Shown: positions 4,147 to 26,144, numbered from the stretch's first letter. The stretch: 64,000 nucleotides of DNA from Gammaproteobacteria bacterium (GCA_016209015.1 JACQWY010000002.1:77622-141621); one strand, 5' to 3'. Translations and numbers: made by a program. The notes: a model not told the origin generated them from the letters alone.

Positions 4147-4147
4147 C

Positions 4148-6058: not shown

Positions 6059-6074
6059 ACGGAGCGTACGCCCA

Positions 6075-9000: not shown

Positions 9001-11105
9001 AAGCGCACGGCGAAGCGGTCGTACGCCATCTGCACACGCTGAAGGGCTCGGTCCGGGCCGCGGGCGCGATGCAGCTCGGCGACTTCGCGCATGCGAGTGA
9101 AGCGCGCATTCAGACCATGCTGCTCAACGAGACCGCGGATCCCGAGTGGCTCGAAGCGCTGCAGCAGTGGTTCGACACGTGGCTCATCGCAATCGACGCG
9201 CTGAAGTCGGCGCGTGCCGGCCAGCTCGGCGGCGCGGCGCAACGAAGCGTCGCCGAAGGTCAGCGCCCCGCGCCGCGCGCGACCGGCCAGCTACGGGTCG
9301 CGACGGAAACGGTCGAACACCTCATCGAAGCCTCGAGCGAGCTCGGGCTCACCCGCGCCCGTACCGCGAACGAAGTGGACGGGATCGGTCAGGGTGTCGC
9401 GGATCTCAAGGAATCGATCGTGCGCCTGCGTCAGCAGATCCGCGAAGTCGAGATCCAGGCGGAATCGCAGATGAGCGCCCGCCAGACGCAGATCGAGGAA
9501 GACAACGCCGCCTACGATCCGCTCGAGTTCGACCGCTTCACGCGCCTGCAGGAGCTCACGCGTCAGATGGCGGAATCGCTGCACGATGTCGTGACGGTGC
9601 AACAGAACCTGCAACGCCACCTAGACGACGTCGAGGAAGTCCTGGAGCGCCAGGGCTCGCTCAGCCGGGACATGCACGGCGCGCTCATGCGCATCTATGC
9701 CGTGCCGTTCGGGACGGTGACCGAACGTCTCGAGCGCGTGGTGCGGCAGGCCACGTCCGCGCTCGACAAGGCCGTGCGCCTCCACGTGCGCGGCGCCGAG
9801 GTCGAGCTCGACCGCGGCATTCTCGATCGCATCGTCGGACCGCTCGAGCACCTGCTGCGCAATTCTATCGCGCACGGCATCGAAGCCGGCGCGGAACGTC
9901 TCGCCGCGGGCAAGCCCGCGGCCGGCCGGCTCGACGTCGTGGTGCGCCAGGATGCGAACCGCGTGACGATCGAAGTGAGCGACGACGGGCGCGGTCTCGA
10001 CCTCGCGAGGATCCGCGCCAAGGCGGAGACCGCGGGCATCGTCGCGCCGGGCGCGGAGCTCACGGAGCAACAGTTGCGCGCGCTGATCTTCGCGCCCGGA
10101 CTCAGCACCGCGGAGTCGGTGACGGAGGTGTCGGGGCGCGGCATCGGCATGGATGCCGTGCGCAATGCCGTGCAGACGCTCGGCGGGACCATCGACATCC
10201 GCACGGAAGCAGGCCGCGGGACGACGTTCCTGGTGCACCTGCCGCTCACCGTCGTGGTCGTCTCCGTCGTCACCGTGATGGTCGGCGGGCGTCAGTTCGC
10301 GATCCCCGCGAATCTCGTCCGGCAGGCGCAGCGGATGAACGGGACGGCGCTGCGCGAGCTCTACGCCCGCGGCGAATCGGCGTGGCAGGACGAGCGCTAT
10401 CCGTTCCACCACTTGAGCGAGCTCATCGGCAAGCGCGTCGCGCCCACCGTGAACGAGCGCGGCAACATGGTGCTCTACCTCGGCGCGGACGAACGCCGCG
10501 TCGCGATTCACGTCGACAGCCTGTCCGTCACCCAGGACGTGACGCTGAAAGACATGGGCCCGCAGCTCGGCCGCGTGCCGGCTCTCGCCGGTGCGAGCGT
10601 CACGGGCGCCGGGCGGGTGCTGCTCGTGATCGATCCACTGCAGATGGTGAGCCGCGTGGCCGCGGCGAAGCGCGAGGACGACAAGACGAAAGGCGCCGCA
10701 CGGCGCCAGCCGCTCGTCCTCATCGTCGACGACTCGATCACCGTGCGCAAGGTCACGAGCCGGTTGATGGAACGCGCGGGCTATCGCGTGGCGACGGCGA
10801 AAGACGGTGTCGAGGGTCTCGAACAGATGCACGCGAAACGGCCGGACATCGTGCTGCTCGACATCGAGATGCCGCGCATGGACGGCTTCGAGTTCACGAA
10901 GCACGTCCGCAGCGAGGCAGCGACGGCTGCGCTGCCGATCGTGATCATCAGCTCGCGTACGGCGGACAAGCACCGTCAGCACGCGGAACGTCTCGGCGTG
11001 AATCTCTTCCTCGGCAAGCCGTACGAGGACGACCGGCTCCTCGCGGCGGTGGCGTCTCTGGTCGGTGGTGAAGGAACCGACGCGCTGCCGCGCACCGGCA
11101 CGTGA
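6075..11105 (+). CDS. chpA: ChpA-type multi-Hpt CheA histidine kinase with C-terminal receiver (Pil-Chp system)
   Basis: 1676 aa. Several Hpt-like blocks: HTLKGSSRVVGL, HTLAGIGRTVRID, HTLKGSVRAAGAM. HATPase_c region: GRGIGMDAVRNAVQTLGGTIDIRTEAGRGTTFLVHLPLT. A CheW-like domain is followed by a REC domain (PLVLIVDDSITVRK...DIVLLDIEMPRMDGFE). Confidence 0.85.
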   Translation: MIAQTDMDALRIVAPEIDRVLALTASALTDGANAELARQCERDLHRLRGAFEMAAAPGLARFCECFTAGYCASLADPANRSRWNALLERALAALKRCVRDAEHNGAVQSMLLFPLYVDMKRALGEDKVSASDLYYPEVDVERSRGEPVTLPAQDSTAVAKLARGRYQRALLAWLRGDGVAPAAMLRAVTTVDQLFGAQSNFWWVACGFLDGIRAGGFTIDSHLKRICARIDLQIARICDGANLVSDALLREMLYFIGRCTVDTTRISELREAYALDDDARNGAAESDDPAARAAALSAVHTAQRTLEGLAGGGAGAEAAFDAAIERLNACIDTLREPAVKAAGNAVGTEAQELRSGGRNYEKDAVSLAGLLLALERVLDERTAQPGATAELNALLEGGTTTGGTTNRLDAALGQEIRKSLKQVEHALESLTAAAVPRDVAPALNPLRRAGAALAIASQTEAAQLLAHAEGLVRELADSPTPETQIETLAECLGGAELFVEAACRGSNGREVILPLLRKLGLAPADEPPGEPAATQPATVEQALALERRGVQDLLHNWQRSSERVVDELKNNLQAIHQDALLVADREVRERSAHALSLLQAAPPAIDPQLRDAVAAVGGVMGGRGQAPAAVDVASDPEVLDVYLEEAREVLDTVRAHLASDARTPEGLREVRRYYHTLKGSSRVVGLVHMGEVAWSVERQLNAWLDADLDATPALLAAVGAVAEAFAGWVENLADHGSTGVDAAALQAGIDALTPASATAPEPVPAAQADVEPEPPAAGAAPNPDHVRLGPEFTVSRALLDIFRSEAAQHLATLRTDADSAAPGDTVRRTALRAAHTLAGIGRTVRIDAVAGLAAALEAWLERMLDAGAAMEEECRALFVEAVDSLGAMLATIEGEALPIADTALRDKLEAAAAAVVAAEEAAFVEQEIAIPAALLEAAFMQGVNPEILPVVLDEAHDLGAAIGRELVGWRESPDEEAHGEAVVRHLHTLKGSVRAAGAMQLGDFAHASEARIQTMLLNETADPEWLEALQQWFDTWLIAIDALKSARAGQLGGAAQRSVAEGQRPAPRATGQLRVATETVEHLIEASSELGLTRARTANEVDGIGQGVADLKESIVRLRQQIREVEIQAESQMSARQTQIEEDNAAYDPLEFDRFTRLQELTRQMAESLHDVVTVQQNLQRHLDDVEEVLERQGSLSRDMHGALMRIYAVPFGTVTERLERVVRQATSALDKAVRLHVRGAEVELDRGILDRIVGPLEHLLRNSIAHGIEAGAERLAAGKPAAGRLDVVVRQDANRVTIEVSDDGRGLDLARIRAKAETAGIVAPGAELTEQQLRALIFAPGLSTAESVTEVSGRGIGMDAVRNAVQTLGGTIDIRTEAGRGTTFLVHLPLTVVVVSVVTVMVGGRQFAIPANLVRQAQRMNGTALRELYARGESAWQDERYPFHHLSELIGKRVAPTVNERGNMVLYLGADERRVAIHVDSLSVTQDVTLKDMGPQLGRVPALAGASVTGAGRVLLVIDPLQMVSRVAAAKREDDKTKGAARRQPLVLIVDDSITVRKVTSRLMERAGYRVATAKDGVEGLEQMHAKRPDIVLLDIEMPRMDGFEFTKHVRSEAATAALPIVIISSRTADKHRQHAERLGVNLFLGKPYEDDRLLAAVASLVGGEGTDALPRTGT

Positions 11106-11118
11106 GGAGCGCCGAGGA

Positions 11119-11859
11119 TCAGCGGGCGGGCGTGAAGCTCGCGCCTTCCCGCGCGGCCGGCGCGGCGTCGAAGAGCAGGAAAGCGCGGTCCCCCTTCACG
11201 TTCATGTAGGAGACCGCGGCGCCGCGACGCCACTGAAAGCTCCGGCCGTCGCCGTCCGCGCCCGCCGCCCAGCGCCAGGGCGCGAAGCCCTGCATATTGC
11301 CCACGATAGAAATCCAGTACGGCTGCCCGCCCTCGAGCACGATCGGCTCGTCGAGATCGGCGTCGAAGCGGAACGCGTCGTTGCCTGCGGCCTCGCGCTT
11401 GAAACGCTTCACCTGACGGCGGGCGACGACCCCCGCATCGTCCTCGGGCGCGAACGCGGGCTCGCTCACCGCCGGCTTCTGCCGGTAGACCGTGATCGTG
11501 AAACCATGTTCGGGCAACGGCTGTCCCTCGCCCCACCACGCCATGCGCGCAATTTTCGTCGTACGGTGCAACGTGACGTTGTCGAAGGCGGCGCTGTCGG
11601 AATCGAGACCGTCCGCGGCGATGGTCTGCTGCGAGTCGACGAAGCCGCCGGCCGGCCTGGCTGCGGGTTGGGCATAGACCTGGATCGCGAGCGCGCCCTG
11701 CGTCGTCGCGAGCAGCGCGGCGGCGAGCGCGGGCCCGGCGCATCGCCGCGCCGGCACACTCCCCGGAATCACCGCCGCGTCGCTCAATGCAAGCCCACGC
11801 GTCGGCGGTATTCCGCGACGACGCGATCGGCGCTCGCGAATCCTTCGAGCCGCAGCCAC
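11119..11859 (-). CDS. Hypothetical secreted protein, last gene of the MCO operon. The true start is probably internal, just before the signal peptide.
   Basis: ORF track 11119..11859 on the minus strand. A signal-peptide-like stretch GPALAAALLATTQGALAIQVYAQ is followed by a Trp-rich soluble domain. I recognise no family. The gene overlaps the SCO1 gene's 3' end. Confidence 0.35.
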   Translation of the reverse strand: MAAARRIRERRSRRRGIPPTRGLALSDAAVIPGSVPARRCAGPALAAALLATTQGALAIQVYAQPAARPAGGFVDSQQTIAADGLDSDSAAFDNVTLHRTTKIARMAWWGEGQPLPEHGFTITVYRQKPAVSEPAFAPEDDAGVVARRQVKRFKREAAGNDAFRFDADLDEPIVLEGGQPYWISIVGNMQGFAPWRWAAGADGDGRSFQWRRGAAVSYMNVKGDRAFLLFDAAPAAREGASFTPAR

Positions 11860-12464
11860 GGCTCGCCGGGCTTCGCCCGCATGAAGACGACGGGGATGTG
11901 ATTCATCTTGTCACCGCGAAATGTCTTGAAGGCCTTTTGCAGCGCGATGCTGTTCTCGACGGAGCCGGTATAGAACTGCCAGCTCGGCCCGGCCTCGAAC
12001 TTCTCCGCATAGGCCGGCAGCGGACCGCTCACCGTGTCGTTCTCGGGGTCGATGGAAATGGAGACGAGGTGCGGCATCGGACCGTCGGCGGCGAGCTTGT
12101 CCTGCACCTGGGCGAACGTGCGGCTCAGGATCGGACAGATCGCCGTGCAGGTCGTGAAAATGAAGTTCACGAGCACCGGACGACCGTCGTCGAGCTCGGC
12201 CGGGAATTCGACCTTGCGGCCGTCGTGACGCTGCATGCCGAGCTTCGGGATCTCGACGCGGTCCTCCGCGCGTTTGACGTCCTGCGGGGCGTTCGCCAGG
12301 TGCTGAGCGTGCATGTCGTGGTTCATGCCCGAATGGTCCATCTGCGAATGATCCATGGGCGCCATGTCTTCGGCCCGCACACCGGATGCGGCACCGAGCC
12401 CGAGGCAGGCGATTGCGATCCATGCGCCGCGCGTCAGGCGCCTGCAGCCGCCGGTTTCGTGCAT
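11784..12464 (-). CDS. SCO1/SenC-family copper chaperone (thioredoxin fold) with a His/Met-rich N-terminal metal-binding stretch
   Basis: Start MHETGG at 12464. The complement of ATG was verified, and GAGAGAGGA lies upstream. CxxxC motif FIFTTCTAICP plus a downstream conserved His. His/Met cluster: MDHSQMDHSGMNHDMHAQH. Signal/TM segment: AWIAIACLGLGAASGVRA. Confidence 0.75.
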   Translation of the reverse strand: MHETGGCRRLTRGAWIAIACLGLGAASGVRAEDMAPMDHSQMDHSGMNHDMHAQHLANAPQDVKRAEDRVEIPKLGMQRHDGRKVEFPAELDDGRPVLVNFIFTTCTAICPILSRTFAQVQDKLAADGPMPHLVSISIDPENDTVSGPLPAYAEKFEAGPSWQFYTGSVENSIALQKAFKTFRGDKMNHIPVVFMRAKPGEPWLRLEGFASADRVVAEYRRRVGLH

Positions 12465-12490
12465 CTCGTCGTCCTCTCTCGTCTCGTCCT

Positions 12491-14302
12491 TCAGGGTACC
12501 GTCCACTCGCCCTCGGCGACCAGCGCCGTGTCGTCCGGCTTCTCGTAGCGGACGACGTAAGCGCCTTTCGAGGCATGGCGCTGCCCGGGCCCGAGACTCA
12601 GGCGCGGATAGACCGTGGTGCCGCTCTGGTGCGCGCGGGGCCCGCCTTCCCGGGCCAGCGCCGCGATCTCGGCCGCCGCGTCGAGGCGCTTGGCGTTCGG
12701 CAGGACGCGATTGCCGCCGGGCTTCCTGACACCGAGCGCGGCACGGTCGCGCGCCTCCTGCTCGGCCTTGCTGGCCTCGCGCCTGCTCAGCATATTCTCG
12801 GCGCGCTCGATCAGATAATCCCGATAGAGATTGTCGAGCATCTCGGCCGTCGTGTTCGTGAGGAAGCTGATCGCGAAGAAGACCTCGGACTGCAGCGGCT
12901 CGTCGACGATTTCGACCTTGGACATCTTGCTCCAGGAACGGAAGTAGGCGAGGTTCGCGCGCCGCTTCGCCGGCAGCTCGTAGGGATAGACGATCTTCGA
13001 CGCGGCGCGCCAGGCTGCGGGCAGCGGCGCGTAATCCGGCCGGCCGAGCGTCGCCGAGACGAGATACGTCGCGCCTGCGACGGGCTGCGTCGCGGCAAGA
13101 TCATCGGGCCTCGCGAAGAGCATGACGTGATCGCCGGCGCGCACGCCGGCGAGCGCGGACGCGAGACCGCCCGTTCCCAGCACGCGCTCGTCGGCCTTCA
13201 CCTCGGCGCGCGCGAGGGCTGCGGCGAACGCTGCGCCGGCGCTGCGGCCCGGTTCGTCGTCGTGACGGATCGCGATCACCCGCGACGGCTTCGTGCCGCC
13301 CACCGGCGCGATCGCGTCGGCCGCGACCGCCGCCTCGAGCCGCACGCCTTGCGAGAAATACAGACCGTACTGCGATGTCACGGGCGGCGCCGGCACGCTC
13401 GGGAACCACAGTGGCAGATGCTGCGCTTCGCAGAACTCGTGCACGGGCGCCCAGTCGGAGTCGGAGATGCCCGAGATGAGCGCGAATGCGGGCTGACGAC
13501 GGTAGAACTCGCCGAGCTGTGCGCCCCAGGTCTTCGCATCGCCCTTCAGCTCCCAGACCTCGAGCGCCCATTTGCGCTCCGTCCCGAGCACGAGCTCCGC
13601 GGCCGTGACCATGTGGCGGCGACGGGCGCGATGCAGGCCCGGCACGGTGCTCGCGTTCTTCTGATCGAACGCGCGCCGCAGCGTGTCGAGCATCGCCTGA
13701 CGCCGTGCCGGCGCGACGCCCGGCGCAATCACCGTGGCGAAGTGGATCGTCTCCTGCTCCGCACCCGGCGAACGTTCGCGCGAGAGCTGCTTCAGGTAGG
13801 CGACGATCGCGGCGGAGTCCTCGGGCCCGAGGTCGTAGCGCGGCATCATCACGCCGAGCGTCCGTCCGTCGGCCGTCGTGCCCTCGCGGATCGCGGTGGT
13901 GAGCGTTTCCTCGTCGTAGTCGGCATGTGCCTGGTTGAAGGCCTTGCCGCGTCGCGGATCCATGGTCGCGACGACGCGTTCGGCATCGTTGAACAGGGCC
14001 TTGCCGGTGATGGGCGGCACGATGATGTCGCCCTCCACCGAGCCCATGCCGCTCTTGCGATGGCATTGCGCACACGCGGCGCCGCGGCCGTCGACCGGCG
14101 TCTCGTTCGCGCGGGAACCGTGCAGCGGCTGGCCCGAGGGCAGCATGCCCTCTTCGTAGATCATGCGGCCGCGTTCGAGCACGGAGGGTGCCGCCGCCGC
14201 GAATCCGCAGACGAAGAACAGCGCCAGCGCCGCGCCCAGACGGCGCGCGAGGTTCGGATCGAGGCGCCGCGGCGAAGGCGGCGCGCCGCGCCGCATGCTC
14301 AT
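12491..14302 (-). CDS. c-type cytochrome domain protein (CxxCH) fused to a large periplasmic domain; a MofC-like accessory cytochrome
   Basis: ORF 12491..14302 on the minus strand. Signal peptide LGAALALFFVCGFAAAAPS. Heme-binding CAQCH. The start ATGA overlaps the stop of the upstream FKBP gene at 14299-14302. Confidence 0.7.
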   Translation of the reverse strand: MSMRRGAPPSPRRLDPNLARRLGAALALFFVCGFAAAAPSVLERGRMIYEEGMLPSGQPLHGSRANETPVDGRGAACAQCHRKSGMGSVEGDIIVPPITGKALFNDAERVVATMDPRRGKAFNQAHADYDEETLTTAIREGTTADGRTLGVMMPRYDLGPEDSAAIVAYLKQLSRERSPGAEQETIHFATVIAPGVAPARRQAMLDTLRRAFDQKNASTVPGLHRARRRHMVTAAELVLGTERKWALEVWELKGDAKTWGAQLGEFYRRQPAFALISGISDSDWAPVHEFCEAQHLPLWFPSVPAPPVTSQYGLYFSQGVRLEAAVAADAIAPVGGTKPSRVIAIRHDDEPGRSAGAAFAAALARAEVKADERVLGTGGLASALAGVRAGDHVMLFARPDDLAATQPVAGATYLVSATLGRPDYAPLPAAWRAASKIVYPYELPAKRRANLAYFRSWSKMSKVEIVDEPLQSEVFFAISFLTNTTAEMLDNLYRDYLIERAENMLSRREASKAEQEARDRAALGVRKPGGNRVLPNAKRLDAAAEIAALAREGGPRAHQSGTTVYPRLSLGPGQRHASKGAYVVRYEKPDDTALVAEGEWTVP

Positions 14303-14994
14303 TTGATTTCCACGAGCTCGAAGTCGTAGATCAGCACTTCGTTCGGCGCGATGTCACCGCCGACGCCGCGCTCGCCGAAGCCGAGCTTCGGCGGAATGAC
14401 GAGCTGCCACTTCGAGCCAAGCGGCATTTCGGCGACGGCGTCGCGCACGCCTTCCGGTGTGATGCCCGTCATCTTCACCGTCGCAGTCTGATCGCCCTGC
14501 GTGCCGACGAACTCCATGCCCGCGGTCGTGGTGCCGCGGAACCTGCAGACTATCGTGTCGTCCTTCGTCGGCTTGCGGCCGGCGCCGGCCTTGACCACTT
14601 TGTACTGCACGCCGTTCGACAGCTCTTTCACGCCTTCCCTGCTCTTGTTCGCGGCGAGGAAGGTGTCCGCCTTCTTCGCGTTCTCCTGTGCGGCGAGCTG
14701 GCGGGTGACGCGCGATTTGCGGACGAGCTCGGCCATGAACTTGTTCATGATGTCCTTGAGCTCGGCTTCGGAGATCGCGATGCGCTCACCGGACATGCCA
14801 TCGCGCAGTCCGCGCACCATGGCCTCGACGTTGATCTCGACCTGATCCTTCTTGAAATTGCGTGCGGTCTGCACGCCGATGCCATAGCTCAGGCGATCCT
14901 GTTCCGTCTTCAGCGCGGGCGCTTCGTCCTTGGCATGGACCGCAACGGTCCACGCCAGAGCCATGAGGGCGAGCGCAAGAGGCTTCGGTGTCAT
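14299..14994 (-). CDS. FKBP-type peptidyl-prolyl cis-trans isomerase (FkpA/Mip-like), periplasmic
   Basis: Start MTPKPLALALMALAWTVAVHA at 14994. The complement of ATG was verified, and AAGGAA lies upstream. FKBP C-terminal domain: GVQYKVVKAGAGRKPTKDDTIVCRFRGTTTAGMEF...PLGSKWQLVIPPKLGFGERGVGGDIAPNEVLIYDFELVEI. Confidence 0.8.
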   Translation of the reverse strand: MTPKPLALALMALAWTVAVHAKDEAPALKTEQDRLSYGIGVQTARNFKKDQVEINVEAMVRGLRDGMSGERIAISEAELKDIMNKFMAELVRKSRVTRQLAAQENAKKADTFLAANKSREGVKELSNGVQYKVVKAGAGRKPTKDDTIVCRFRGTTTAGMEFVGTQGDQTATVKMTGITPEGVRDAVAEMPLGSKWQLVIPPKLGFGERGVGGDIAPNEVLIYDFELVEIK

Positions 14995-15194
14995 GTCATT
15001 TCCTTGTACGTGTGAGAGGGGATCGCGGCGCACGGAGCAGACGTCCGGTGGGCGCCGCCGTCAGGATACCAACGTTGCGACCGCTCGAATCTCGAGGGCG
15101 CTCGAGCCGACGACGCGGTCCGATCGGGCGTTGCCCGGTGGCCGCGGCGTGCGGCACCGGAACGCGGGCACTGCGCCCGCGTTCCGGAACCTCG

Positions 15195-15704
15195 TCAGCG
15201 CGCGATGTGGTTCTCGGGCAGCGGATTCACGAGCAGATGGCTCGACGCCACTGCAGCGCCATCCGGATTCGCCTCGCCCGCGGCGGCCGGCGTCGTGGTG
15301 ACGCTGAAGTTGCCGTTGACGTTGCGCTTGCCCCCGGCGGTGTCGAGCGTGCCGTAGACGACGCCGCTGAGCGCGTAGGACACGCTGCCGTCGGCGTCCG
15401 TCACGGTCTTCAACACCACGCGGGAGATGTGCCCGCTCAGGCTCGTCGCGCCGTCGTTGAATTCGAGCGTGCCGTCCTTGAACGTCGCGGCGCCCGAGCG
15501 CGGATCGCCGCTGGAGGGTTTGGAAGTGGTGAGGCTGATCGGACGGCCGCTCACCGCGATCTCGTGATCGGCAGTGATGCTCATGCTGCCCGATTCCACG
15601 CCGCCCTGGTTCGGGTCGGGGAGGACGAGGGGCAGGCCCCATGCCGCCGAGACCAGCGAGGCGGCGAGACCGATCGAGGCCAAGGTCTTGTGCACGATGT
15701 TCAT
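15195..15704 (-). CDS. Hypothetical small secreted protein (~169 aa) inside the MCO operon
   Basis: Start MNIVHKTLASIGLAASLVSAAWG at 15704. The complement of ATG was verified, and AAGGA lies upstream. Composition is Ser/Thr/Gly-rich, and I recognise no domain. Confidence 0.5.
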   Translation of the reverse strand: MNIVHKTLASIGLAASLVSAAWGLPLVLPDPNQGGVESGSMSITADHEIAVSGRPISLTTSKPSSGDPRSGAATFKDGTLEFNDGATSLSGHISRVVLKTVTDADGSVSYALSGVVYGTLDTAGGKRNVNGNFSVTTTPAAAGEANPDGAAVASSHLLVNPLPENHIAR

Positions 15705-15951
15705 AGTCGTAATCCTTCTGGATGTGTGTCGCTGATCCGTCTGTCGCCGCGCTTCGTAGCGTGCACGGCACGTTCCGGACCCTTGCTGCAAGAAACCCTC
15801 GTGGCGAATCCGGCCGCCCGGGCGCTGTGTTCGTTCGAAGCGATGATGTTCATCTTCCCTTCTCCCTCCACGCAGATGCCCGTTAGTCCGTTTCCGCCTT
15901 CGCCTCACGCCGCGGTAAAGCGGCGCGAGGCTGCATCGACCCGCGCTACGC

Positions 15952-18900
15952 TCAGTTCAGCGTGACGGTCGCCGTGGCCGGAGCCGACGTCAGACCGCCG
16001 TAGTTCAGCTGATACGTGAACGTATAGGTTCCGCGCTTCTGCACCTGACGCTGGGCCGGGGTCAGCCCCGTTCCCACCGGCGTCAGGGCGATGTTGCACG
16101 AACCCGAAGTCGGAGCGCAGGTCAGGGTCGCCGTGGCGCCGCCGTTGACGGAGTTCAACGTACCGACCGTCACCGTACCGCCGGACGCCGAGGACGGCGT
16201 GTCGTTGGTGCGGATGTTGAAGCTGACGGTCTGCGTCGAGTTCGTCGTCGACTGCGTCGCGGGGAACGTGAAGCTGTCGCTCACGGTTACGGGCGCAACC
16301 AGCGTGGTGGCCGACGACGGGGTGGCGGCGAAAGCCGAGCTGCCCCAGGCGTTGGCCCGTACGCGGAAGCTGTAACGTGTGGCCGGCTGCAGACCCGTCG
16401 TCGGCAGCGACGTTCCGGTCGCTGCGTTGTTCAGGGTCGTCCAGCCGTTCCCGTCACACGGACTCGCCACGGTGTTCGCACACTGCTGCTGCTGCACCGT
16501 GTAGTTGACCGCAGCGGAAGAACCGTTCCAGCGGATCGTCATGGACGTGCTCTGGATGTTGTTCGGCCCGGCCATCGTCGGAGTCGATGGGACACGCAGC
16601 GTGGTCAGTGTCTTCGCGTTGGAGTACGGCAGGCCCGGATGCCCGGCCACCACCGGCTGCGCGAAGTACGTATACGTCGTACCCGGCGCTGCGGTCGTGT
16701 CGGCCCACGGACTGCCGGCCGCGGCGGAGAACGTCGTACGACCGCTCGTGCAGGTCCCAAAGGTCTGCGTGCCCGTGCAGCGCACGGCGCTATAGGAGTC
16801 CACGCTGAACGAGAGGTTCGACCACGTCAGATCCACCTGCGTCTTGCCGGGCGCGCTCACCGCATTGAGGTCGGCGATCGCGAGGCTCACCGCCGTCACG
16901 TTGATGTTGACCGGCGCCGACTTCTGCACGCCGTCCTTGCCGACGACCGTCACCGCGTAGCTGTACGCATTGCCGGGCGTGAGGCTCGTGTCGGCATAGG
17001 GACCGGCCGCGACCGTCGAGGTCATGTCGGGTGTACGGTCGACTTCGAACGTCACCGCGTTCGGGTTGTCGTTCGTCCAGTCGAGCGACACCGCCCACGG
17101 GGTGAGCGAGCCGTTGACGATCTGGAGAGCCGATACCGGCTGCGGTGCCGTGGTCACGTTCAACGAGGCGTCGGCCGTGCCGTCCGCACCCGAGATCGTC
17201 ACCGTATAGGCGTAATCGGAGTTCGCACTCACGTTCTCGTCCGTCCACGTCGTCGTGCCCGTGAGACCCGACGCAACGGGGGTGCCGTCACGGCTGATCG
17301 TCGCGTTCAGGCCCGCCGTGTTCGCGTTCGCCGGATACGTCCAGCTCAGCACGACGCTCGTCGCCGTGTGGGTCTGCGTGAACGTGGCGATGGCCGGCGC
17401 AGTCGTCACGTCCTTCGAGACCGTGAACGCATTGCCGTTCGCGCCGGTCACCGTCACCGCATAGCTGAAGGCCGCATTGGCAGCCAGCCCGGCATCGGTG
17501 TAGGTGTCCGCGGCCAGAATCTGCGCCCCGGTCAGCGTGGCGACGACATCGCCGTTGCGGGCGATCTCCACCTTCTGGAGGGCGCTGAGATTCGGGTTCG
17601 CGTTCGCCCAGCGCAGCGTCACGGCGCTCGCGGTCACGTCACCGGCCCGGGCAGCTTCGAAGCTCGCCGGCACGGCGTCGGTGGTCGCGGAGACCGTGTT
17701 GCTGTGGATCGAGGAGCCGTGTTTCGCGACGACATCGAAGAAGTACGTCGTGTTCGCCGCGAGACCCGTGATGACGGAGTTGAGATCGGTCAGCGAGGCA
17801 TTCACGTCGGCGAGGGCATCGGCCGCGAAGCCGTCCTCGACCTGGTAGCTCGTCGCGTTCTGCGACGAGGTCCAGCTCAGCGCGACGGAGCTCGAGTTCA
17901 CCGTCCCCAGCGTCAGCGTGAAGGTGCCGGGCGGCGTGAGCTGCAGGAGGGCCTGCGACCACGCGGTCGGCTTGATCGAGGTCTTCGGATCGCTATACGG
18001 CGTCATAGGACCCTGCTGGGCCGAGTTGTACGCACCGACGCGGAACGCGTAGTCCGTATTCGGCGTGAGCGTGGCACGCTCGATGGACGCCGACTCGGTA
18101 TTCGCGATCGCGGTCGAGACCGTCTGCCAGGCATTGGCGTCGAGGATCGGTTCATCGCCGTTGTAGCCGGTGATGGGCTGCATCTGCACCATGAAGCCGA
18201 TTTCGTTCATCGGGTTGCCGAGGTTGGCAGGCTTGTCTTCCACCAGCGTCGCCGGCGTCGGATCCTGCCAGGTCAGGTCGATCTTCTGCGCATCGGCGGT
18301 CGCGCTGAGCGTGCCGGGTGCGGTCGGAGCGACGACCGACGCCTTCGTGTCCATCACGAACGGACGCATGAAGTCGTTTTCCTCATGGCCCAGGATGTGA
18401 CAGTGCCAGACGTACTCGTTGTCGAAGTCCTCGAGCCTGTTCTGCACGAGCAGCGGGTTGTTGGTCTGCGGATCGATCTGCGTGAAGCCGGTGGTCACAC
18501 CCACTTCCTGCGAGGGATCGTCCGTGCGCACGCTGCGCGGCTGACCGAAAGGCGTCTTCGGGGCAACGGCCTTGACCGCGACGATGACGTCCTCGAGCGG
18601 ATTCATCTTCACGGTTTCCTTCCAGCCGACTTCGTTCGCTTCCGGCGGCTTGATCGTGCCGTCCCAGCCCACGCGGTTGATCAACTGCACATTCACGAGG
18701 TGGAAGTGCACGGGGTGCGCGTCGACGCCGTTGTGGGTGATCTTCCAGATCTGCACCTGGCCCTGCGGAATCGTCTCCGTCGTCGGGTCGATGTAGTTCA
18801 GCGGAATCGTCGTCTGGGTCAGCGCGCTCGTGAACGGGAGCTCGACACCGAGCGTCGCGTTCATGCGGCCGTAGAAGGGTTCGAAGAGCTCCTGAATCGC

Positions 18901-21723
18901 CTTGTTCTGCACGTCGTAGGCCGTCGTTGCAGAGCTCACGTTGTCGGGATTGGCGAGATCGTAGCGATCCATGATCGCCATGGCGGCGGCACCGCCACCG
19001 CTCATCGTCGCGGTGGCCTTGGCCTGCGTGCCGCCCGCCGGCGGATCGATGGTCACCTTGAGGGGCGCGGCGAGGACCTGCGGCAAACCGGCGGCGGCCA
19101 GCGTCACGCCGGAGACCTGGCCCGTGGCCGAGACCGTCGCCGTGGCGGCGACGGAGGTGACGGGCACGTCGTGGGCATCGGTCAGCGTGACCGCGGGCGG
19201 GGACGCCTGGCTGTAGCCCGTGCCGCGCACCGTCACGACCACCCGGCTCGGCACCTGGCCGAACGTCACGGTCGGGGCGGCGGTATAACCCGCGCCGGCA
19301 CTGCTGAGCGAGAGGCCCTGCACGATGCCGGGATGCGCGGGATCCATGATGGCCGTGGCGGCGGCCTGCGTGCCGCCGGCCGGCGGCGCGGCGAGCGTCA
19401 CCGGCGGCATGAACGTGTAACCCGTACCGCCGCCGCTCAACGCGAAGGAGTTGACACGCAGGGCTTCACCCGCGACCGGGGTATCCGTCGCGTAGAACTT
19501 CGGCAGGTTCGCGGAACCCGTGAAGATCGACGCGTAGTTGTCGCCGTAGGTCGTGCCGAGTGCGTCGTTATAGGCGATCTGGCCCGCGACCGGCGGATCC
19601 TGCACGGCCTTGTACGCCGCGTGCAGCGCGTCGTTGAGCGCCACGGCATCGAGCGGTGCGGCCGGCGCGGCGGCCCGGACGTGGATCTGCATCACCGTAC
19701 GCGTATTCGGACCGTAGCCGGGCTTCGTGCTCGGCGCGCCGCCGGCATCGGTCTGATCACCGTTGCCGGTGTAGTAGTCGCTACGCGGGTCGAAGCCCGG
19801 GTTCGGCGCCGGCCCATCGTTGTAGAGGATCAGCGTCTTGCCCGCGAACTGCGAGAAGTCGACCACGACGTCCGCCCGTTCCGCCGGTCCGAGGTAGAGG
19901 GCGTGGCAGTCCGGATAGCAGGCCTGCGAGGGATCCTCGTTCTGCGAGACGTTCAACACGGTGGCGGTGCGGCGGTTGTAGTCGTAGTTCTCCGGCACGG
20001 GCTTGACCGTGCTGACATTCGGCATCAGGCCCGCTTCATTGCCGATCTGGTACATGACCGGACCGACGGTCGTCGGATCGGGTACGCCACCCGCGCGGGA
20101 GTCGGTCGGCCAGTTGTACGGGAAGCCCGGGGTTGCCGTGGCCGGCACCATCTTGACCTCGGTGCAGTCCTCGATGTCGGTCGGCGCGTTCGGGCTGCCG
20201 TCGCAGAGCTTCAGGCCGGGGCTGTTGAGCGGATCCTCGGGGTTCGTCGTGTTCTTGTCGGCGGCGACGTAGAATCCGAGGTTCAGGAAGCGGTCGTTGC
20301 CCGCGGCGAGGATGCGGAAGCGATAGGCCTTCGGATCCACGGTCATCGTCGGATACGCGGTACCGTTGACGACCGAGGTGTCCATGAACGCTTCCGGCGT
20401 CGTCGTCTCGTCACCGTAGGCACCGGTGGGCAGCGCGTACTGCGCCGGGAACACCGGCCAGAACCACGGCCCCCAGTCCCAGCGGCCGACGGCGTTCGCG
20501 CCGCCCTTCTGGTTCGGATCCTGGTTCGTCTCGTAGACGTGCGGGAACCACAGGTCGCCGGGCTGGCCCCAGGTCATCGGATCCCACAGCGCGTCCTGCG
20601 TGTCGATGTCCGCCGGTACGAACGTCTTGTCCTGGATGACGAGCGGGATCTGCTCGCCGGGCAGACCGCCCGCGGCGAGGATGGTTTCCGCCTGCGGATC
20701 CGTCAGCACGTAACCCGCAGCTTCGCCCGCATACACGTTCAGGCGCGTGAGGCCCGAGGTGTGGTCGTGGTAGAACATGAAACGCGCGCTCTGGTCGTTC
20801 GTCCAGTACAGCGTCGCGGAGCCCTCACCCGGATCGACCATGTCGGGCACGTTCTGGAAGCTCTGACCCTTCTTGTAGTGCGCACCCGTATCGCCGACCG
20901 GCACGGTCCACTGGTGCGGCGTACCATCGGAAATCCACGGCGTGAGACCGCCATGGAGGTGAATCTCCGCGCGGTTCTCCGTGAACATCGGAGCGTCGGG
21001 GCCATCGGGACCGAAGCCCGCACCCGGCAGGGTGTGGTCGACCGGGATGAACAGGTCGCCATTGCGTTTGCCGGTTTCGGGATCGAACTTGCCGATCGGC
21101 AACAGGTTGCTGTATTTCATGCGCACCGGCTTGCCCTTCGTCGCGAGGATGATCGGGCCGAGGTAGTGCGGCTTCGCGTAGGCATAGACCTGCTTGCCGT
21201 CGACCATGATCGCGTTGCCGTCGAGGTAGGTCAGCGGATAGCACTCGCTGCCCGCGCTCTTCGCGCCACAGTCGCCGGCCGCGGTCGCCGCCGCGTCGAT
21301 CTGCACGTAGCCGCGCAGCGTCGTCGCCTTCGGCAGATCGCTGTGCATTTTCTCGGTGTACTCGACGATGCCGATCCAGTAGTAATCCGAACCCGGATAG
21401 CTCGCCGTGTCCGCCGCGGCAAGCGGGAGAGACTGGCCGAGGTTGTTCACGCCGGCGTTCGTCGAGGGCGCGAGGCCCGGCACGCTGGACAGCGTGTCGA
21501 CGAACTTGCGGAGCGCCGTACCGGACTGGTGAGCGTTGCCCGCCCAGTCCGTGTAGTCGCCGCTGGGGCTGTTCGCGAAATACGTGGGGACCGGGAACTC
21601 GAGGCCTCCCAGATCCATGCCGCTGCCGAGCCCGGCGCCCGCGAATGCGGAATCCATGGCGGCGGGCAGCGTCGCGAGTAGGAATAGCGACCCTATCCGG
21701 GATCGCGTTTTGCGTCGGCTCAT
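15952..21723 (-). CDS. Giant multicopper oxidase (~1924 aa): N-terminal cupredoxin/MCO catalytic region followed by ~8 FN3/Ig-like repeats. MnxG/MofA-like candidate Mn(II) oxidase.
   Basis: Start MSRRKTRSRIGSLFLLATLPAAMDSAFA at 21723. The complement of ATG was verified, and GGAGGA lies upstream. Copper-ligand motifs: IHLHGG and FMFYHDHTSG (N-terminal HxH pairs), HPVHFHLV and WHCHILGHEENDFM (C-terminal HxH and HCH..H..M, the type 1/trinuclear site). The C-terminal ~800 aa are tandem ~90-aa repeats rich in Thr/Ser/Ala with conserved W/Y positions, typical of FN3 domains. Confidence 0.8.
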   Translation of the reverse strand: MSRRKTRSRIGSLFLLATLPAAMDSAFAGAGLGSGMDLGGLEFPVPTYFANSPSGDYTDWAGNAHQSGTALRKFVDTLSSVPGLAPSTNAGVNNLGQSLPLAAADTASYPGSDYYWIGIVEYTEKMHSDLPKATTLRGYVQIDAAATAAGDCGAKSAGSECYPLTYLDGNAIMVDGKQVYAYAKPHYLGPIILATKGKPVRMKYSNLLPIGKFDPETGKRNGDLFIPVDHTLPGAGFGPDGPDAPMFTENRAEIHLHGGLTPWISDGTPHQWTVPVGDTGAHYKKGQSFQNVPDMVDPGEGSATLYWTNDQSARFMFYHDHTSGLTRLNVYAGEAAGYVLTDPQAETILAAGGLPGEQIPLVIQDKTFVPADIDTQDALWDPMTWGQPGDLWFPHVYETNQDPNQKGGANAVGRWDWGPWFWPVFPAQYALPTGAYGDETTTPEAFMDTSVVNGTAYPTMTVDPKAYRFRILAAGNDRFLNLGFYVAADKNTTNPEDPLNSPGLKLCDGSPNAPTDIEDCTEVKMVPATATPGFPYNWPTDSRAGGVPDPTTVGPVMYQIGNEAGLMPNVSTVKPVPENYDYNRRTATVLNVSQNEDPSQACYPDCHALYLGPAERADVVVDFSQFAGKTLILYNDGPAPNPGFDPRSDYYTGNGDQTDAGGAPSTKPGYGPNTRTVMQIHVRAAAPAAPLDAVALNDALHAAYKAVQDPPVAGQIAYNDALGTTYGDNYASIFTGSANLPKFYATDTPVAGEALRVNSFALSGGGTGYTFMPPVTLAAPPAGGTQAAATAIMDPAHPGIVQGLSLSSAGAGYTAAPTVTFGQVPSRVVVTVRGTGYSQASPPAVTLTDAHDVPVTSVAATATVSATGQVSGVTLAAAGLPQVLAAPLKVTIDPPAGGTQAKATATMSGGGAAAMAIMDRYDLANPDNVSSATTAYDVQNKAIQELFEPFYGRMNATLGVELPFTSALTQTTIPLNYIDPTTETIPQGQVQIWKITHNGVDAHPVHFHLVNVQLINRVGWDGTIKPPEANEVGWKETVKMNPLEDVIVAVKAVAPKTPFGQPRSVRTDDPSQEVGVTTGFTQIDPQTNNPLLVQNRLEDFDNEYVWHCHILGHEENDFMRPFVMDTKASVVAPTAPGTLSATADAQKIDLTWQDPTPATLVEDKPANLGNPMNEIGFMVQMQPITGYNGDEPILDANAWQTVSTAIANTESASIERATLTPNTDYAFRVGAYNSAQQGPMTPYSDPKTSIKPTAWSQALLQLTPPGTFTLTLGTVNSSSVALSWTSSQNATSYQVEDGFAADALADVNASLTDLNSVITGLAANTTYFFDVVAKHGSSIHSNTVSATTDAVPASFEAARAGDVTASAVTLRWANANPNLSALQKVEIARNGDVVATLTGAQILAADTYTDAGLAANAAFSYAVTVTGANGNAFTVSKDVTTAPAIATFTQTHTATSVVLSWTYPANANTAGLNATISRDGTPVASGLTGTTTWTDENVSANSDYAYTVTISGADGTADASLNVTTAPQPVSALQIVNGSLTPWAVSLDWTNDNPNAVTFEVDRTPDMTSTVAAGPYADTSLTPGNAYSYAVTVVGKDGVQKSAPVNINVTAVSLAIADLNAVSAPGKTQVDLTWSNLSFSVDSYSAVRCTGTQTFGTCTSGRTTFSAAAGSPWADTTAAPGTTYTYFAQPVVAGHPGLPYSNAKTLTTLRVPSTPTMAGPNNIQSTSMTIRWNGSSAAVNYTVQQQQCANTVASPCDGNGWTTLNNAATGTSLPTTGLQPATRYSFRVRANAWGSSAFAATPSSATTLVAPVTVSDSFTFPATQSTTNSTQTVSFNIRTNDTPSSASGGTVTVGTLNSVNGGATATLTCAPTSGSCNIALTPVGTGLTPAQRQVQKRGTYTFTYQLNYGGLTSAPATATVTLN

Positions 21724-21949
21724 CTCTCGAATCCTCCGATTCAGACCTCGGTTGCCGCGGGCTGCCAGGGGCCGCCGGCGGGGCGTTTCGTCTGGCTCCC
21801 CACCCGCCGATCGGGGTGCGATCCGTTCGCCCGAGAGGTCCGGGCGGGACACGCACCACGGGCACGGAGCCCAGGTGTGCGGCAGGATGTCGCATGGCGA
21901 TCCCGCATTGCGATTCGGTCAAACGCGCGGGGGGCGGAGGGGAATTCGT

Positions 21950-22130
21950 GGTAGGGAAAGACTGTAGAGGCCCGCGCTATGTCACTGAATTAGCACGGCT
22001 AGTGATTTAGATTCGCATTACGGGGATCAATTTACTGTCATTCGCCCTACTTTCGGACGATTTTGCCCCGGCGCGGTGCCACGGGGCGTTGATGAACAAT
22101 AATGCATTGCATTTGCATCACGGGATCCCG
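21950..22130. promoter_or_regulatory. AT-rich divergent control region between the MCO operon and the hemerythrin-GGDEF gene, containing a TGCAT direct-repeat cluster
   Basis: Local GC is far below the window average. AATGCATTGCATTTGCAT sits at about 22101-22118. The region lies between divergent starts at 21723 (minus) and 22375 (plus). Confidence 0.3.
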
Positions 22131-22374
22131 GCTCGGCGGGCATTCAAAACTATTGTTTCCCGGCCGCGCCCGCTGCGCTGCCCGCGAATTGACGGACGTC
22201 AAGGTTCGGAACGCCCGCGCGGGGTTTGATGCATCCTGGAGCCGCAGGGCGGGGCCGGCCGCGGGTCCGGTGAGGCTGCGGGCCGCTACGAGCGCAGGGA
22301 GGAAGGAACGCTCGAATGATCAGACCACTCGCCGGCTGTCGTTGACAGGACCGCTGCCACGGGCTCACGCATCC

Positions 22375-23568
22375 ATGGAAACCTTCGTCTGGGACCGCCA
22401 CTTCACCACCGATCTCGACACGGTGGACGATCAGCACCACGCGCTCGTCGATTTGATCAACCGGCTCGGCGAGCACCTCGTCGCGGGCCCGGCCGACGAC
22501 ACCGATCTCGAAGCGATATTCGGGCAGCTCGCCGAATACGCGATCTACCACTTCGCCGAAGAAGAGAATCTGATGGCCGCCTCGGGCGTCGACCCGCGGC
22601 ACGTCGACGAGCACAAGGACTTGCACCGGCGCTTCGTCAACCAGGTCCAGAGCATGTGGCACGCGCGGCGCACGATCGCGACCGCCACGACCGTCCTCCA
22701 CGAATTCCTCGCCGCCTGGCTGAGCTTCCACATCCTCGGCGAGGATCAGGCGATGGCGCGCCAGATCAAGCGCATCGCCGAGGGAGAATCGCCGGGCGTC
22801 GCCTACGCGCGCGAGGCGGACCCGGTGGACAACGCGACGACGGCGCTGCTCGGCGCGCTGCGGAATCTCTATCACGTGCTGTCAGCGCAGAACGACGATC
22901 TCGTCATCGCGAATCGCAATCTCGAACAGCGCGTCGCGGAACGTACCGAGGCACTGGCACGCGCGAACGCCGCGCTCACCGACGCAAATCGTCAGCTCGA
23001 GAAGGCCTCGCGCACCGACGGCCTGCTCGGTATCGCGAACCGCAAATACTTCGACGAGAAGCTGCGCGAAGAATGGCAGCGCGGCCGGCGGGAACGTCAT
23101 CCGCTGGGGCTCATCATGCTCGACGTCGATCACTTCAAACGCTACAACGACAGCTACGGTCACATCGCCGGCGATGCCTGCCTGCGCGCCGTCGCGGGGG
23201 CGGCCGGCGGGGCGCTGAAACGTCCGGGCGACCTCATCGCGCGCTACGGCGGGGAGGAGCTCGTCATCATGCTGCCGCACACCGACGTCGCGGGCGCGCT
23301 CGCCGTTGCGCGACAGGTCCTCGAACACATTCACGCGCTCGCCCTGCCGCACTGTGATTCACCCGTTGCGCCGCACGTCACCGTGAGCATGGGCGTCGCG
23401 TCGCGATTCGCGGATACCGCGCGCAGCGCGGAATCGCTCATTGCCGCGGCGGATGCCGCGCTCTACGCGGCGAAGGAAGCCGGCCGCAATCGCATCTGCG
23501 GCGCGACGCCGCACGATCCGCAAGCCGGCGCGGCTATGCCGGACCAGCCGACCGAGGGGCTGCGCTGA
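22375..23568 (+). CDS. Bacteriohemerythrin-GGDEF diguanylate cyclase (putative O2/NO/redox-sensing DGC)
   Basis: ATG at 22375 is in frame within ORF 22102..23568. N-terminal hemerythrin: HHALVDLINRL...AIYHFAEEENLM...HVDEHKDLHRRF...FLAAWLSFHILGEDQAM. C-terminal GGDEF: GLLGIANRKYFDEKL...LIMLDVDHFKRYNDSYGHIAGDACL...RYGGEELVIML (GGEEL active site). Confidence 0.8.
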   Translation: METFVWDRHFTTDLDTVDDQHHALVDLINRLGEHLVAGPADDTDLEAIFGQLAEYAIYHFAEEENLMAASGVDPRHVDEHKDLHRRFVNQVQSMWHARRTIATATTVLHEFLAAWLSFHILGEDQAMARQIKRIAEGESPGVAYAREADPVDNATTALLGALRNLYHVLSAQNDDLVIANRNLEQRVAERTEALARANAALTDANRQLEKASRTDGLLGIANRKYFDEKLREEWQRGRRERHPLGLIMLDVDHFKRYNDSYGHIAGDACLRAVAGAAGGALKRPGDLIARYGGEELVIMLPHTDVAGALAVARQVLEHIHALALPHCDSPVAPHVTVSMGVASRFADTARSAESLIAAADAALYAAKEAGRNRICGATPHDPQAGAAMPDQPTEGLR

Positions 23569-25180: not shown

Positions 25181-25214
25181 CGCCACCTCCGCACGGCCGG
25201 ACCAGCCGCCGCTC

Positions 25215-25262
25215 AATTGTACCATATAGTATATTCTCATACTGTTTGGTAGATACGGCGGC
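25215..25262. promoter_or_regulatory. Candidate TetR operator: AT-rich inverted repeat ACCATATAGTATAT-TCTCATACTGTTTGGT in the divergent region
   Basis: The half-sites AGTATA and TATACT-like are read directly. This is the only AT-rich patch between the ligase start (25180) and the TetR start (25449). Confidence 0.35.
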
Positions 25263-25448
25263 CGCGGTTCGGCTCGCGCGAGGGCCCGGAAAGCCCGGGT
25301 GCTGCCGATATGGCGGCCCGCTTGCGCAGCGCGCTGGCGGCATCGACGGCGCAGTGCTAGTGTGCAGTCCCGTCGTGCTGCGTCGCGCACTCCACCGCCG
25401 GGGGGCGGCCGGGTGAGAACGCGGCGCGGCGCCGGAACCGATGAGACC

Positions 25449-26144
25449 ATGAAAGAAGAAATCAAAGAATACAAACGCGAGCGCATCCTCGAAGCCGCGA
25501 TCGCGCTGTTCCACGAGCGCGGGTTCGCGGGCACGTCCGTCGAAGCCGTCGCCGACCGCCTCGGCGTCACGAAGCCCTTCATCTATACGTATTTCGAGAA
25601 CAAGCACGCATTGCTGGTCGCCATCTTCCTGCAGGCGACCGAACGGCTGCTCGCGCTCGTCGCCGCGGCGCTCGCCGAAGAGGCCCCGCCGGACCGTCAG
25701 CTCGCGAACCTCGTGCACGCCTTCGCACGCGAGAACATGGACGTGCGGCTCATCTCGCGCGTGTTCCTGCAGGAAGAGAAGCACCTCGACGAGAAATTCC
25801 TCAAGCGCATCCGTCAGGCGCAGAAGAAGTTCGACACCCAGCTCACCGAGCTCATCGCGCGCGGGGTCGAATGCGGACTGTTCGAGGTCGAGGATCCCGC
25901 GGTCGCGGCGCTCGCGATCACGGGCATGATCCGTTGGATCCAGCGCTGGTATCGCGAGGACGGCCGACGCGAGGCCGAAGATCTCGCGCGCATCATGTCG
26001 GAGCTCGCCTTGAACCTCGTGCGCTGCAAATCCACCGCCGCGCCCGCGAGGGCGGTGCGGACCCCGACGTCGCGCCGCACCAAGGCCGTGACGAAAGAGA
26101 AGGCACCACCCGCGCGACGCGTGAGGCGCAAGACGAACGCCTGA
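25449..26144 (+). CDS. TetR/AcrR family transcriptional regulator
   Basis: ATG at 25449 is in frame within ORF 25299..26144. N-terminal HTH: RERILEAAIALFHERGFAGTSVEAVADRLGVTKPFIYTYFENKHALL. Confidence 0.8.
   Translation: MKEEIKEYKRERILEAAIALFHERGFAGTSVEAVADRLGVTKPFIYTYFENKHALLVAIFLQATERLLALVAAALAEEAPPDRQLANLVHAFARENMDVRLISRVFLQEEKHLDEKFLKRIRQAQKKFDTQLTELIARGVECGLFEVEDPAVAALAITGMIRWIQRWYREDGRREAEDLARIMSELALNLVRCKSTAAPARAVRTPTSRRTKAVTKEKAPPARRVRRKTNA

Follow-up and report, generated by a model that had tools for sequence, protein, structure and literature searches.

A mof-type gene cluster for a MofA/OmpB-family multicopper oxidase, with probable maturation genes, in an uncultured gammaproteobacterium

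Described clusters and the locus in the window

Gene clusters in which a multicopper oxidase (MCO) of the OmpB/MofA type is accompanied by mofB, mofC (a cytochrome c joined to a periplasmic binding domain) and a SCO1/SenC gene have been described in iron oxidisers, in Leptothrix cholodnii and in Geobacter sulfurreducens (He et al. 2017, PMC5566968, Fig. 4), and a five-gene mof operon has been reported for the Mn oxidiser Rubrivivax sp. A210 (Martinez-Ruiz et al. 2021, PMC8218464, Fig. 3); the mofA-mofB-mofC operon of Leptothrix discophora (Corstjens 1997; Brouwers 2000) is cited in the former paper. Here we describe six co-directional minus-strand genes at positions 11119-21723 of a 64,000-nucleotide stretch (hereafter the window) of an uncultured gammaproteobacterium (GCA_016209015.1, JACQWY010000002.1:77622-141621). 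The locus is a further copy of this published type of cluster, and the novelty implied by an earlier note on the same DNA is lost to the descriptions from iron oxidisers, Leptothrix and Rubrivivax (PMC5566968, PMC8218464). We consider it highly probable that the locus encodes an extracellular or surface MCO of the MofA/OmpB family together with a dedicated periplasmic maturation module.

The functional record of the family is mixed. The Mn-oxidising factor of L. discophora led to the identification of MofA (PMC5566968; bioRxiv 10.1101/2022.11.10.515945), yet according to the latter preprint L. discophora SS-1 still oxidised Mn after mofA had been deleted. The mofA of L. ochracea ranks with its most strongly expressed genes in iron mats in which Fe is far above Mn, and the authors remain undecided between Fe and Mn (PMC11412304); a 2026 paper states that MofA/OmpB-type MCOs are not known to oxidise iron. 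OmpB of G. sulfurreducens, as summarised in PMC5566968, is needed for Fe(III) oxide reduction and is secreted by an atypical type II system (Mehta et al. 2006, cited there). Outside the family, the mnxG operon of Pseudomonas putida GB-1 carries two SCO1/SenC genes (the earlier note was correct in giving this operon a SCO1/SenC gene), a fusion of cytochrome c with a substrate-binding protein, and a SurA-type chaperone (PMC11409713, Table 4).

The six genes of the locus and the region upstream of them are as follows (g2 and g6 denote the two small genes).

15952-21723, minus strand: MofA/OmpB-family MCO, 1923 amino acids (aa); open reading frame (ORF), GGAGGA ribosome-binding site, Pfam Cu-oxidase_2 and fn3
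15195-15704, minus strand: g2, secreted protein of a rare family, 169 aa; predicted all-beta small barrel
14299-14994, minus strand: MofB-type periplasmic Mip/FkpA-like FKBP peptidyl-prolyl isomerase (PPIase), 231 aa, with signal peptide; Pfam FKBP_N and FKBP_C, NCBIfam FKBP subfamily
12491-14302, minus strand: MofC-type protein, 603 aa, with signal peptide, single-haem cytochrome c domain and type-1 periplasmic-binding-protein-like domain; Pfam
11784-12464, minus strand: SCO1/SenC-type copper chaperone, 226 aa, with N-terminal signal or anchor; Pfam SCO1-SenC (PF02630)
11119-11772, minus strand: g6, secreted protein, 217 aa, putative distant DUF7901 member; start of the public annotation, weak Pfam DUF7901 match
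21724-22101, no strand assigned: non-coding region upstream of the MCO, common to it and a divergent hemerythrin-GGDEF gene; read from the sequence

All six genes are present, and of the kinds first proposed for them. In a window with a GC content of ~0.65-0.74, the GC content at third codon positions is 0.85-0.90 in the six called frames, while alternative frames that overlap them have 0.47-0.61; Pfam matches exceed the curated cut-offs for four of the six genes (MCO, FKBP, MofC-like and SCO1), and both small genes have homologues elsewhere. N-terminal export signals can be read from the sequences of all six products. The start codons merit some care. The MCO start at ATG 21723 has a GGAGGA 8 nucleotides (nt) upstream, whereas the public annotation (P0001, 1901 aa) begins 22 codons downstream of it (21658-21723, minus strand) and in doing so loses the signal peptide seen in the family consensus. 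For g6, the start at 11859 given in the earlier note is probably too far upstream; GTG 11772, the start used in the public annotation, yields a signal peptide and is preferred. Three homologues have the same initial Met as g2, which supports the start given for it.

An oxidase of the MofA/OmpB family

Aligned with the MofA-type ORF of L. discophora CCM 2812 (locus L035), the MCO shows 43% identity over 942 aa and 52% over 330 aa (E = 0), and the alignment spans an insertion with GxGYT repeats as well. More than 6000 relatives are present in the protein database, with Gallionella, Ferrigenium, Azonexus, Geotalea and Geomonas among the named sources, and they often carry the database names 'laccase' or 'choice-of-anchor D'. 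A scan of a collection holding one genome per species returned at least 593 matching stretches, from which 77 loci were kept for neighbourhood comparison; these include L. discophora, L. ochracea, Rubrivivax, Ferriphaselus R-1, Geobacter, Anaeromyxobacter, Neobacillus and many uncultured lineages. A neighbour-joining tree gives the MCO a branch of its own inside a proteobacterial clade with the proteins of Leptothrix, Rubrivivax, Ferriphaselus and Gallionella. Its identity over conserved columns is 62-64% to the Ferriphaselus, Gallionella and Geomonas proteins (~64% for Ferriphaselus R-1, L023), 56-62% to Geobacter and Geomonas relatives (L052, L024) and 56% to Leptothrix MofA. Judged from these alignments, the oxidase belongs to the family of Leptothrix MofA and Geobacter OmpB, and the parallel with mofA-mofB-mofC, first drawn as a shared logic, goes beyond this to homology (43-52% for the MCO, 43% for MofC, and synteny).

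The features that define the oxidase are listed below; the four copper motifs are each invariant in a 17-sequence alignment.

20953-20961, minus strand: copper motif 1, HLH, residues 255-257
20761-20769, minus strand: copper motif 2, HDH, residues 319-321
18700-18717, minus strand: copper motif 3, HPVHFH, residues 1003-1008
18367-18405, minus strand: copper motif 4, HCHILGHEENDFM, residues 1107-1119
18934-19503, minus strand: inter-cupredoxin insertion with GxGYTxxPxV-type repeats, also in Leptothrix MofA; alignment with L035 and family consensus
16324-18321, minus strand: seven Fn3-like repeats, residues ~1135-1800, with a C-terminal domain after them that extends to residue 1923; Pfam fn3 and Pur_ac_phosph_N, LxW...YxYxV periodicity

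The protein contains one set of copper motifs (H255xH, H319xH, H1003xxHxH and H1107CHxxxHxxxxxM). The fourth, which includes the only HCH in the MCO, provides the type 1 Cu Cys, trinuclear-cluster His residues and the axial Met. Among proteins of solved structure, CotA and bilirubin oxidase are the best relatives, matching residues 224-368 and ~980-1055 (E ~1e-28), together with phenoxazinone synthase and CueO, and an AlphaFold 2 model of residues 1-1100 aligns to the whole of CotA once, with a target TM-score of ~0.65 from a poor model (predicted local distance difference test, pLDDT, 53.7). The remainder of the chain is accounted for by the insertion, by the Fn3-like repeats (Pfam fn3 at E 2e-18, the count of seven being taken from motif spacing) and by a C-terminal domain of ~120 aa. 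The MCO is, mainly on the evidence of its sequence, a single four-copper centre on a CotA-like three-domain core, extended by insertions and an Fn3 tail.

This architecture bears on the size of the protein, which the earlier note had taken as characteristic of MnxG-type oxidases. MnxG-type Mn oxidases have six cupredoxin domains in a ceruloplasmin-like arrangement, hence their large size. The MCO described here has one HCH, one motif set and one alignment to CotA, and there is no MnxG entry among its sequence matches in the PDB; since its length comes from insertions and the Fn3 tail and not from extra cupredoxin domains, the link between size and MnxG fails. The P. putida GB-1 oxidase, in turn, is of the MnxG type, with a reported 25% identity to Bacillus MnxG over 99% of its length (PMC11409713).

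The relation to CotA, bilirubin oxidase and CueO, with which the MCO shares the catalytic fold and the copper ligands, raises the alternative that it is a general laccase or CotA-like oxidase of phenols or bilirubin-type substrates, or a CueO-like enzyme that detoxifies Cu(I), with neighbours that serve envelope housekeeping. In its favour are the solved relatives named above, the database name 'laccase' of several family members, and partial NCBIfam matches to PhsA and CueO. These matches, however, score far below their cut-offs (90 against 950 for PhsA and 68.7 against 525 for CueO), so the protein falls outside the curated CueO/CotA-type laccase families; the small enzymes are of ~500 aa and have neither the large insertions nor the Fn3 tail, and they are not accompanied by dedicated FKBP, MofC and Sco genes. 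In the MCO family, on the other hand, the helper genes are syntenic with the oxidase in dozens of genomes, which argues against a random set of housekeeping neighbours. We regard a laccase-type role as improbable.

Relative to the Leptothrix and Rubrivivax proteins, the MofA/OmpB-family oxidase of the window is a homologous MCO with the same copper motifs, the GYT-repeat insertion and an Fn3-type tail, but its tail, with seven Fn3-like repeats, is longer than that of Leptothrix, giving 1923 aa against 1645 aa. The G. sulfurreducens OmpB, so far as it is described in PMC5566968, belongs to the same MCO family and has an Fn3 domain; the literature presents it as surface-exposed and type II-secreted. 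One relative stands apart in length: a MofA-type ORF in a Gallionellaceae metagenome-assembled genome (MAG; L030, ~2348-14440, plus strand) reads through to 4030 aa, ~2x the usual length.

Helper genes, synteny and transcription

Three of the five genes that follow the oxidase can be matched to the known mof systems. The FKBP is ~40% identical to the FKBP gene that follows mofA in L. discophora (L035) and so is of the mofB kind; in most of the proteobacterial relatives an FKBP gene stands next to that of the MCO. Along its whole length, MofC shares 43% identity with the L. discophora MofC-type protein, also a fusion of a cytochrome c with a binding protein. Its Cytochrom_C match in Pfam is above the cut-off and its Peripla_BP_6 match is partial and below it (27.3 bits, cut-off 31.7); no solved relative was found by sequence. 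Across 26 MofC homologues, exactly one CxxCH is present in every case (26/26), and a Met-Pro (M153) and a PVH288xFC291 motif in the binding-protein-like part are conserved. The SCO1 protein has B. subtilis Sco1/YpmQ as its closest solved relative (E 3e-11, PDB), its CxxxC and His189 are conserved in 21 homologues, and 13 of 20 other cluster-associated SCO1 homologues have similar His/Met-rich arms.

14060-14074, minus strand: haem-binding CAQCH (CxxCH) of MofC, residues 77-81
12300-12365, minus strand: His/Met-rich stretch of SCO1, MAPMDHSQMDHSGMNHDMHAQH; read from the sequence
12135-12149, minus strand: CTAIC, the CxxxC copper-binding motif of SCO1; read from the sequence

Searching the 77 loci with the six proteins (tblastn) placed both FKBP and MofC beside the MCO in 25 of them. 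Within the proteobacterial clade, where 27 loci extend for at least 4.5 kb beyond the stop codon of the oxidase gene, FKBP and MofC are found together in 20, with SCO1 as well in 14, and at least one of the three in 26. SCO1 is a common member of such clusters, although the mof operon was first defined by three genes without it. L. discophora CCM 2812 (L035), another Leptothrix, a Rubrivivax MAG (L034) and several others have these genes in the order MCO, FKBP, MofC, SCO1, and FKBP, MofC and Sco are syntenic with the oxidase across Beta- and Gammaproteobacteria. The co-occurrence of the six genes, accordingly, holds for FKBP, MofC and SCO1, which are kept, and not for g2 and g6, which are sporadic.

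The two small genes had been described as lacking a recognizable family and as possible MnxE/F-like subunits. The first statement holds for g2, which has two database relatives and a predicted eight-stranded all-beta fold (pLDDT 64.7) with only generic barrel matches; it occurs in one related locus, a Crenothrix MAG, in the same position between the MCO and FKBP. For g6 it does not: a profile search collected 714 cluster representatives, and some of these relatives have a clear DUF7901 together with Ig-like repeats or a PEP-CTERM tail, by which g6 is classed, on sequence similarity, as a distant DUF7901 member and a generic secreted or surface domain. Genes like g6 lie between FKBP and MofC in four related loci (L005, L023, L028 and L030), and in the Leptothrix and Rubrivivax loci a tblastn search with g6 returned nothing at E 1e-5. 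On these searches g2 and g6 are lineage-specific, sporadic additions outside the core set; their absence from most relatives (they are present in only one and four related loci, respectively) argues against obligatory MnxE/MnxF-type subunits.

Compared as clusters, those of neutrophilic iron oxidisers, Ferriphaselus sp. R-1 and Gallionellaceae (PMC5566968, Fig. 4B), contain the closest MCO relatives and the same set of FKBP, MofC and SCO1. The four loci with a g6-like gene have it between FKBP and MofC and not at the end as in the window; SCO1 is in some cases found upstream of the MCO, and the iron-oxidiser clusters are bordered by type II secretion genes. The Leptothrix and Rubrivivax clusters differ from the window in having no counterpart of g2 after the MCO and, at the tblastn threshold given above, none of the last gene, g6, and the window cluster differs from them in having no adjacent type II secretion genes. 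The G. sulfurreducens cluster (GSU1394-1398), compared by its description in PMC5566968, has MofC-like and SCO1/SenC genes nearby but is reported there without mofB, and its MofC is distant (29%). The P. putida GB-1 mnxG operon, again by description (PMC11409713), resembles the window in its giant secreted MCO followed by SCO1/SenC, a cytochrome c/substrate-binding fusion and a periplasmic PPIase-type chaperone; it differs in that this chaperone is SurA-type and not FKBP, in its two SCO1 genes and in its YVTN beta-propeller gene.

Two kinds of neighbour recur beside the relatives. Genes for GspG-type pseudopilins adjoin ~10 of the 25 syntenic clusters (for example L001 19228-19665, L023 677-8780 and L034 5123-8719), with putative secretin and ATPase ORFs beside the GspG-like genes in the loci flanked by type II secretion genes, and a LuxR-type response regulator lies beside the cluster in 11 loci. 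No such LuxR-type neighbour was found in this window.

A further locus has the helpers with a different partner. On the Cupriavidus metallidurans CH34 megaplasmid (NC_007974.2, ~1.331-1.343 Mb; L078 1-13213 and L079 303-8399), read from ORFs and Pfam, genes for a MofC-like protein (36% identity), an SCO1 (46%) and a PPIC-type PPIase lie downstream of a gene for a 2698-aa secreted protein that has neither an HxH nor an HCH motif and combines a cupredoxin-like N-terminus with cadherin/Big_9 and beta-helix domains. The CxxCH, M153-P and PVHxFC of MofC are kept in this paralogue. As the large protein there is without copper motifs, the helper trio is not limited to bona fide multicopper oxidases, and the trio may be suggested to form a portable module for giant cupredoxin-type surface proteins.

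The layout of the six genes was examined for signs of joint transcription, for which the earlier note had cited tight spacing and ATGA overlaps. The latter part of the cluster bears this out, with an ATGA overlap of FKBP and MofC, 27 nt between MofC and SCO1, and 12 nt between SCO1 and g6. The overlap is the sole one among the five junctions, and the first two are long, with 247 nt between the MCO and g2 and 200 nt between g2 and FKBP; each long gap contains a stem-loop.

15902-15931, minus strand: GC-rich 12-bp stem-loop, 21 nt past the MCO stop codon, without U-tract; unique in the window
15157-15187, minus strand: GC-rich perfect 13-bp stem-loop, 8 nt past the g2 stop codon, without U-tract; segment folding z-score -3.0, unique in the window

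Because of these two gaps with their stem-loops, a single transcript across the six genes, predicted from the gene layout, is graded as possible. The rival view is that the MCO, g2 and the block from FKBP to g6 are separate transcription units, as the two gaps with strong, stop-proximal hairpins would suggest. Against it, the hairpins are without U-tracts, a consensus scan found no promoter-like site in the 247-nt and 200-nt gaps, the gene order is kept across genomes and the last four genes are closely packed. We assign this view a substantial chance, short of even, and the functional linkage of the genes would be unaffected even if the transcripts were separate. The stem-loops are possibly attenuators or hairpins that stabilise the mRNA upstream of them. 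That they are repeated elements of the repetitive extragenic palindromic type was considered and rejected, since neither has a second copy in the window. Scans for promoter and terminator consensus sequences gave nothing above shuffled sequences in the locus, a sigma-70 scan found no minus-strand site in 21724-22101, and Rfam gave zero matches across the whole window. The interval 21724-22101 is nevertheless the likely candidate for the promoter region of the cluster.

Several other features of the window border the cluster or lie further off. Divergent from the MCO is a gene for a hemerythrin-GGDEF diguanylate cyclase (22102-23568, plus strand; real start probably near 22375), and a second, stand-alone hemerythrin gene is found at 1256-1819 (plus strand). 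The idea that the former is a conserved regulator was dropped because there was only one weak GGDEF match in the 77 loci. A Pil-Chp-like chemosensory block (3700-11105, plus strand), with a response regulator, a methyl-accepting protein and a 1676-aa ORF whose sequence suggests a ChpA/CheA-type hybrid kinase, converges on the end of the mof cluster, with 13 nt separating the two stop codons. ARAGORN predicts a 92-nt tRNA-Ala(CGC) at 23703-23794 (minus strand), inside an acyl-CoA synthetase ORF (23573-25582); this is probably a false positive. A protein with a purple-acid-phosphatase-N (Fn3-like) domain is encoded at 51582-52712 (plus strand), and a haem-copper oxidase subunit I gene at 62486-64000 (minus strand) is cut by the window end; no link from either to the cluster was found.

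Substrate, proposed maturation and significance

With the family assigned, the substrate of the oxidase can be considered, and 'Mn(II) oxidase' is at this stage a candidate label only. That the MCO is specifically a Mn(II) oxidase, forming Mn oxide at the cell surface, would follow the history of MofA and its homologues: the discovery of MofA through a Mn-oxidising factor, the presence of the same operon in the Mn oxidiser Rubrivivax sp. A210, and the helper gene types held in common with mnxG of P. putida GB-1, a proven Mn oxidase operon (PMC11409713). It is countered by the persistence of Mn oxidation in the L. discophora SS-1 deletion reported in the preprint, by the abundance of the family in groups that are not known for Mn oxidation (Gallionellaceae, Geobacterales, Neobacillus, Actinomycetota and Chloroflexota), and by the position of the window MCO, which is nearer to the Ferriphaselus, Gallionella and Geomonas proteins than to Leptothrix MofA. 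We treat a specific Mn(II) oxidase as a tentative assignment, on the doubtful side.

The same kinships favour an alternative role in iron metabolism, either as an extracellular ferroxidase in iron-rich, low-oxygen habitats or as an OmpB-like surface protein for insoluble Fe(III)/Mn(IV) oxides. The MCO has its closest relatives in iron oxidisers (Ferriphaselus R-1, Gallionella and Ferrigenium) and in Geobacterales, L. ochracea expresses its mofA strongly in mats dominated by Fe (PMC11412304), and OmpB is required by G. sulfurreducens, in the summary given in PMC5566968, for Fe(III) oxide reduction. That reported phenotype is one of reduction and not of oxidation. It counts against an iron role that the window contains no iron-oxidation genes such as cyc2 or mtoA. 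An iron role is conceivable on this evidence, and we would not call it likely.

Whichever donor is used, the cluster can be read as an assembly line, and the earlier suggestion that SCO1 and a PPIase would serve the assembly of a periplasmic or surface copper oxidase is a reasonable one. In the scheme that we propose, the oxidase would cross the inner membrane unfolded via Sec, as the family consensus has a Sec-type signal peptide without a twin-arginine motif. The Mip-like FKBP would then help to fold the proline-rich, 200-kDa oxidase, and Sco would capture periplasmic copper with its His/Met-rich arm, bind it through CxxxC and His, and pass it to the oxidase. MofC may supply or remove electrons at this stage, which could serve to maintain copper as Cu(I), for instance, or the Sco thiols in their reduced state, and it may also bind a ligand, with the conserved PVHxFC motif as the site. 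The loaded oxidase would be exported (in relatives by a type II secretion system, which in this genome would be encoded elsewhere), and the Fn3 tail could hold it at the surface or on minerals, where it would take electrons from Mn(II), Fe(II) or another one-electron donor and reduce O2 to water. The stem-loops after the MCO and g2 may set a ratio of high oxidase to low helper expression.

Several points weigh against this picture of a mof-type surface oxidase with its own maturation module. The substrate of MofA/OmpB proteins is unsettled even in the founding organisms, and the source organism here is known only as a MAG. The role given to MofC is pure inference, and O2 reduction by an MCO does not depend on a cytochrome partner. 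The structural model of the core is poor (pLDDT 53.7), its query ending 7 residues before the HCH motif. Type II secretion genes were not found in the 64-kb window, the two hairpin-bearing gaps make co-transcription of the six genes no more than possible, and an SRR near the N-terminus of the window MCO makes Tat export possible in place of Sec.

A bolder extension of the scheme would make FKBP/PPIase, MofC and Sco a portable metallation-and-folding module for giant, Sec-exported cupredoxin-type proteins in general, serving MofA-type and MnxG-type oxidases and the 2698-aa Cupriavidus protein alike; MofC would be its haem-driven copper handler, acting as a Cu(II) reductase or binding Cu at the PVHxFC site, and g2 a lineage-specific extra subunit or carrier. 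In this full form we hold it to be a speculative and unlikely proposal.

Taken alone, the window locus is one more complete and well-delimited example of the mof-type cluster and changes little. The MofA/OmpB family is very large and is highly expressed in iron mats, and its substrate and the role of its helpers are unsolved nearly 30 years after mofA was cloned; the interest of the locus is that of the unsolved biochemistry of the family, and not of the locus itself. What the comparison adds is a quantified distinction between core genes (FKBP, MofC and Sco) and optional ones (g2, g6, type II secretion genes and the LuxR regulator). Together with the occurrence of the same helper types beside MnxG-type oxidases and beside a giant protein without copper motifs, this distinction points to a role for MofC and Sco in maturation of the oxidase and not in the choice of its substrate.

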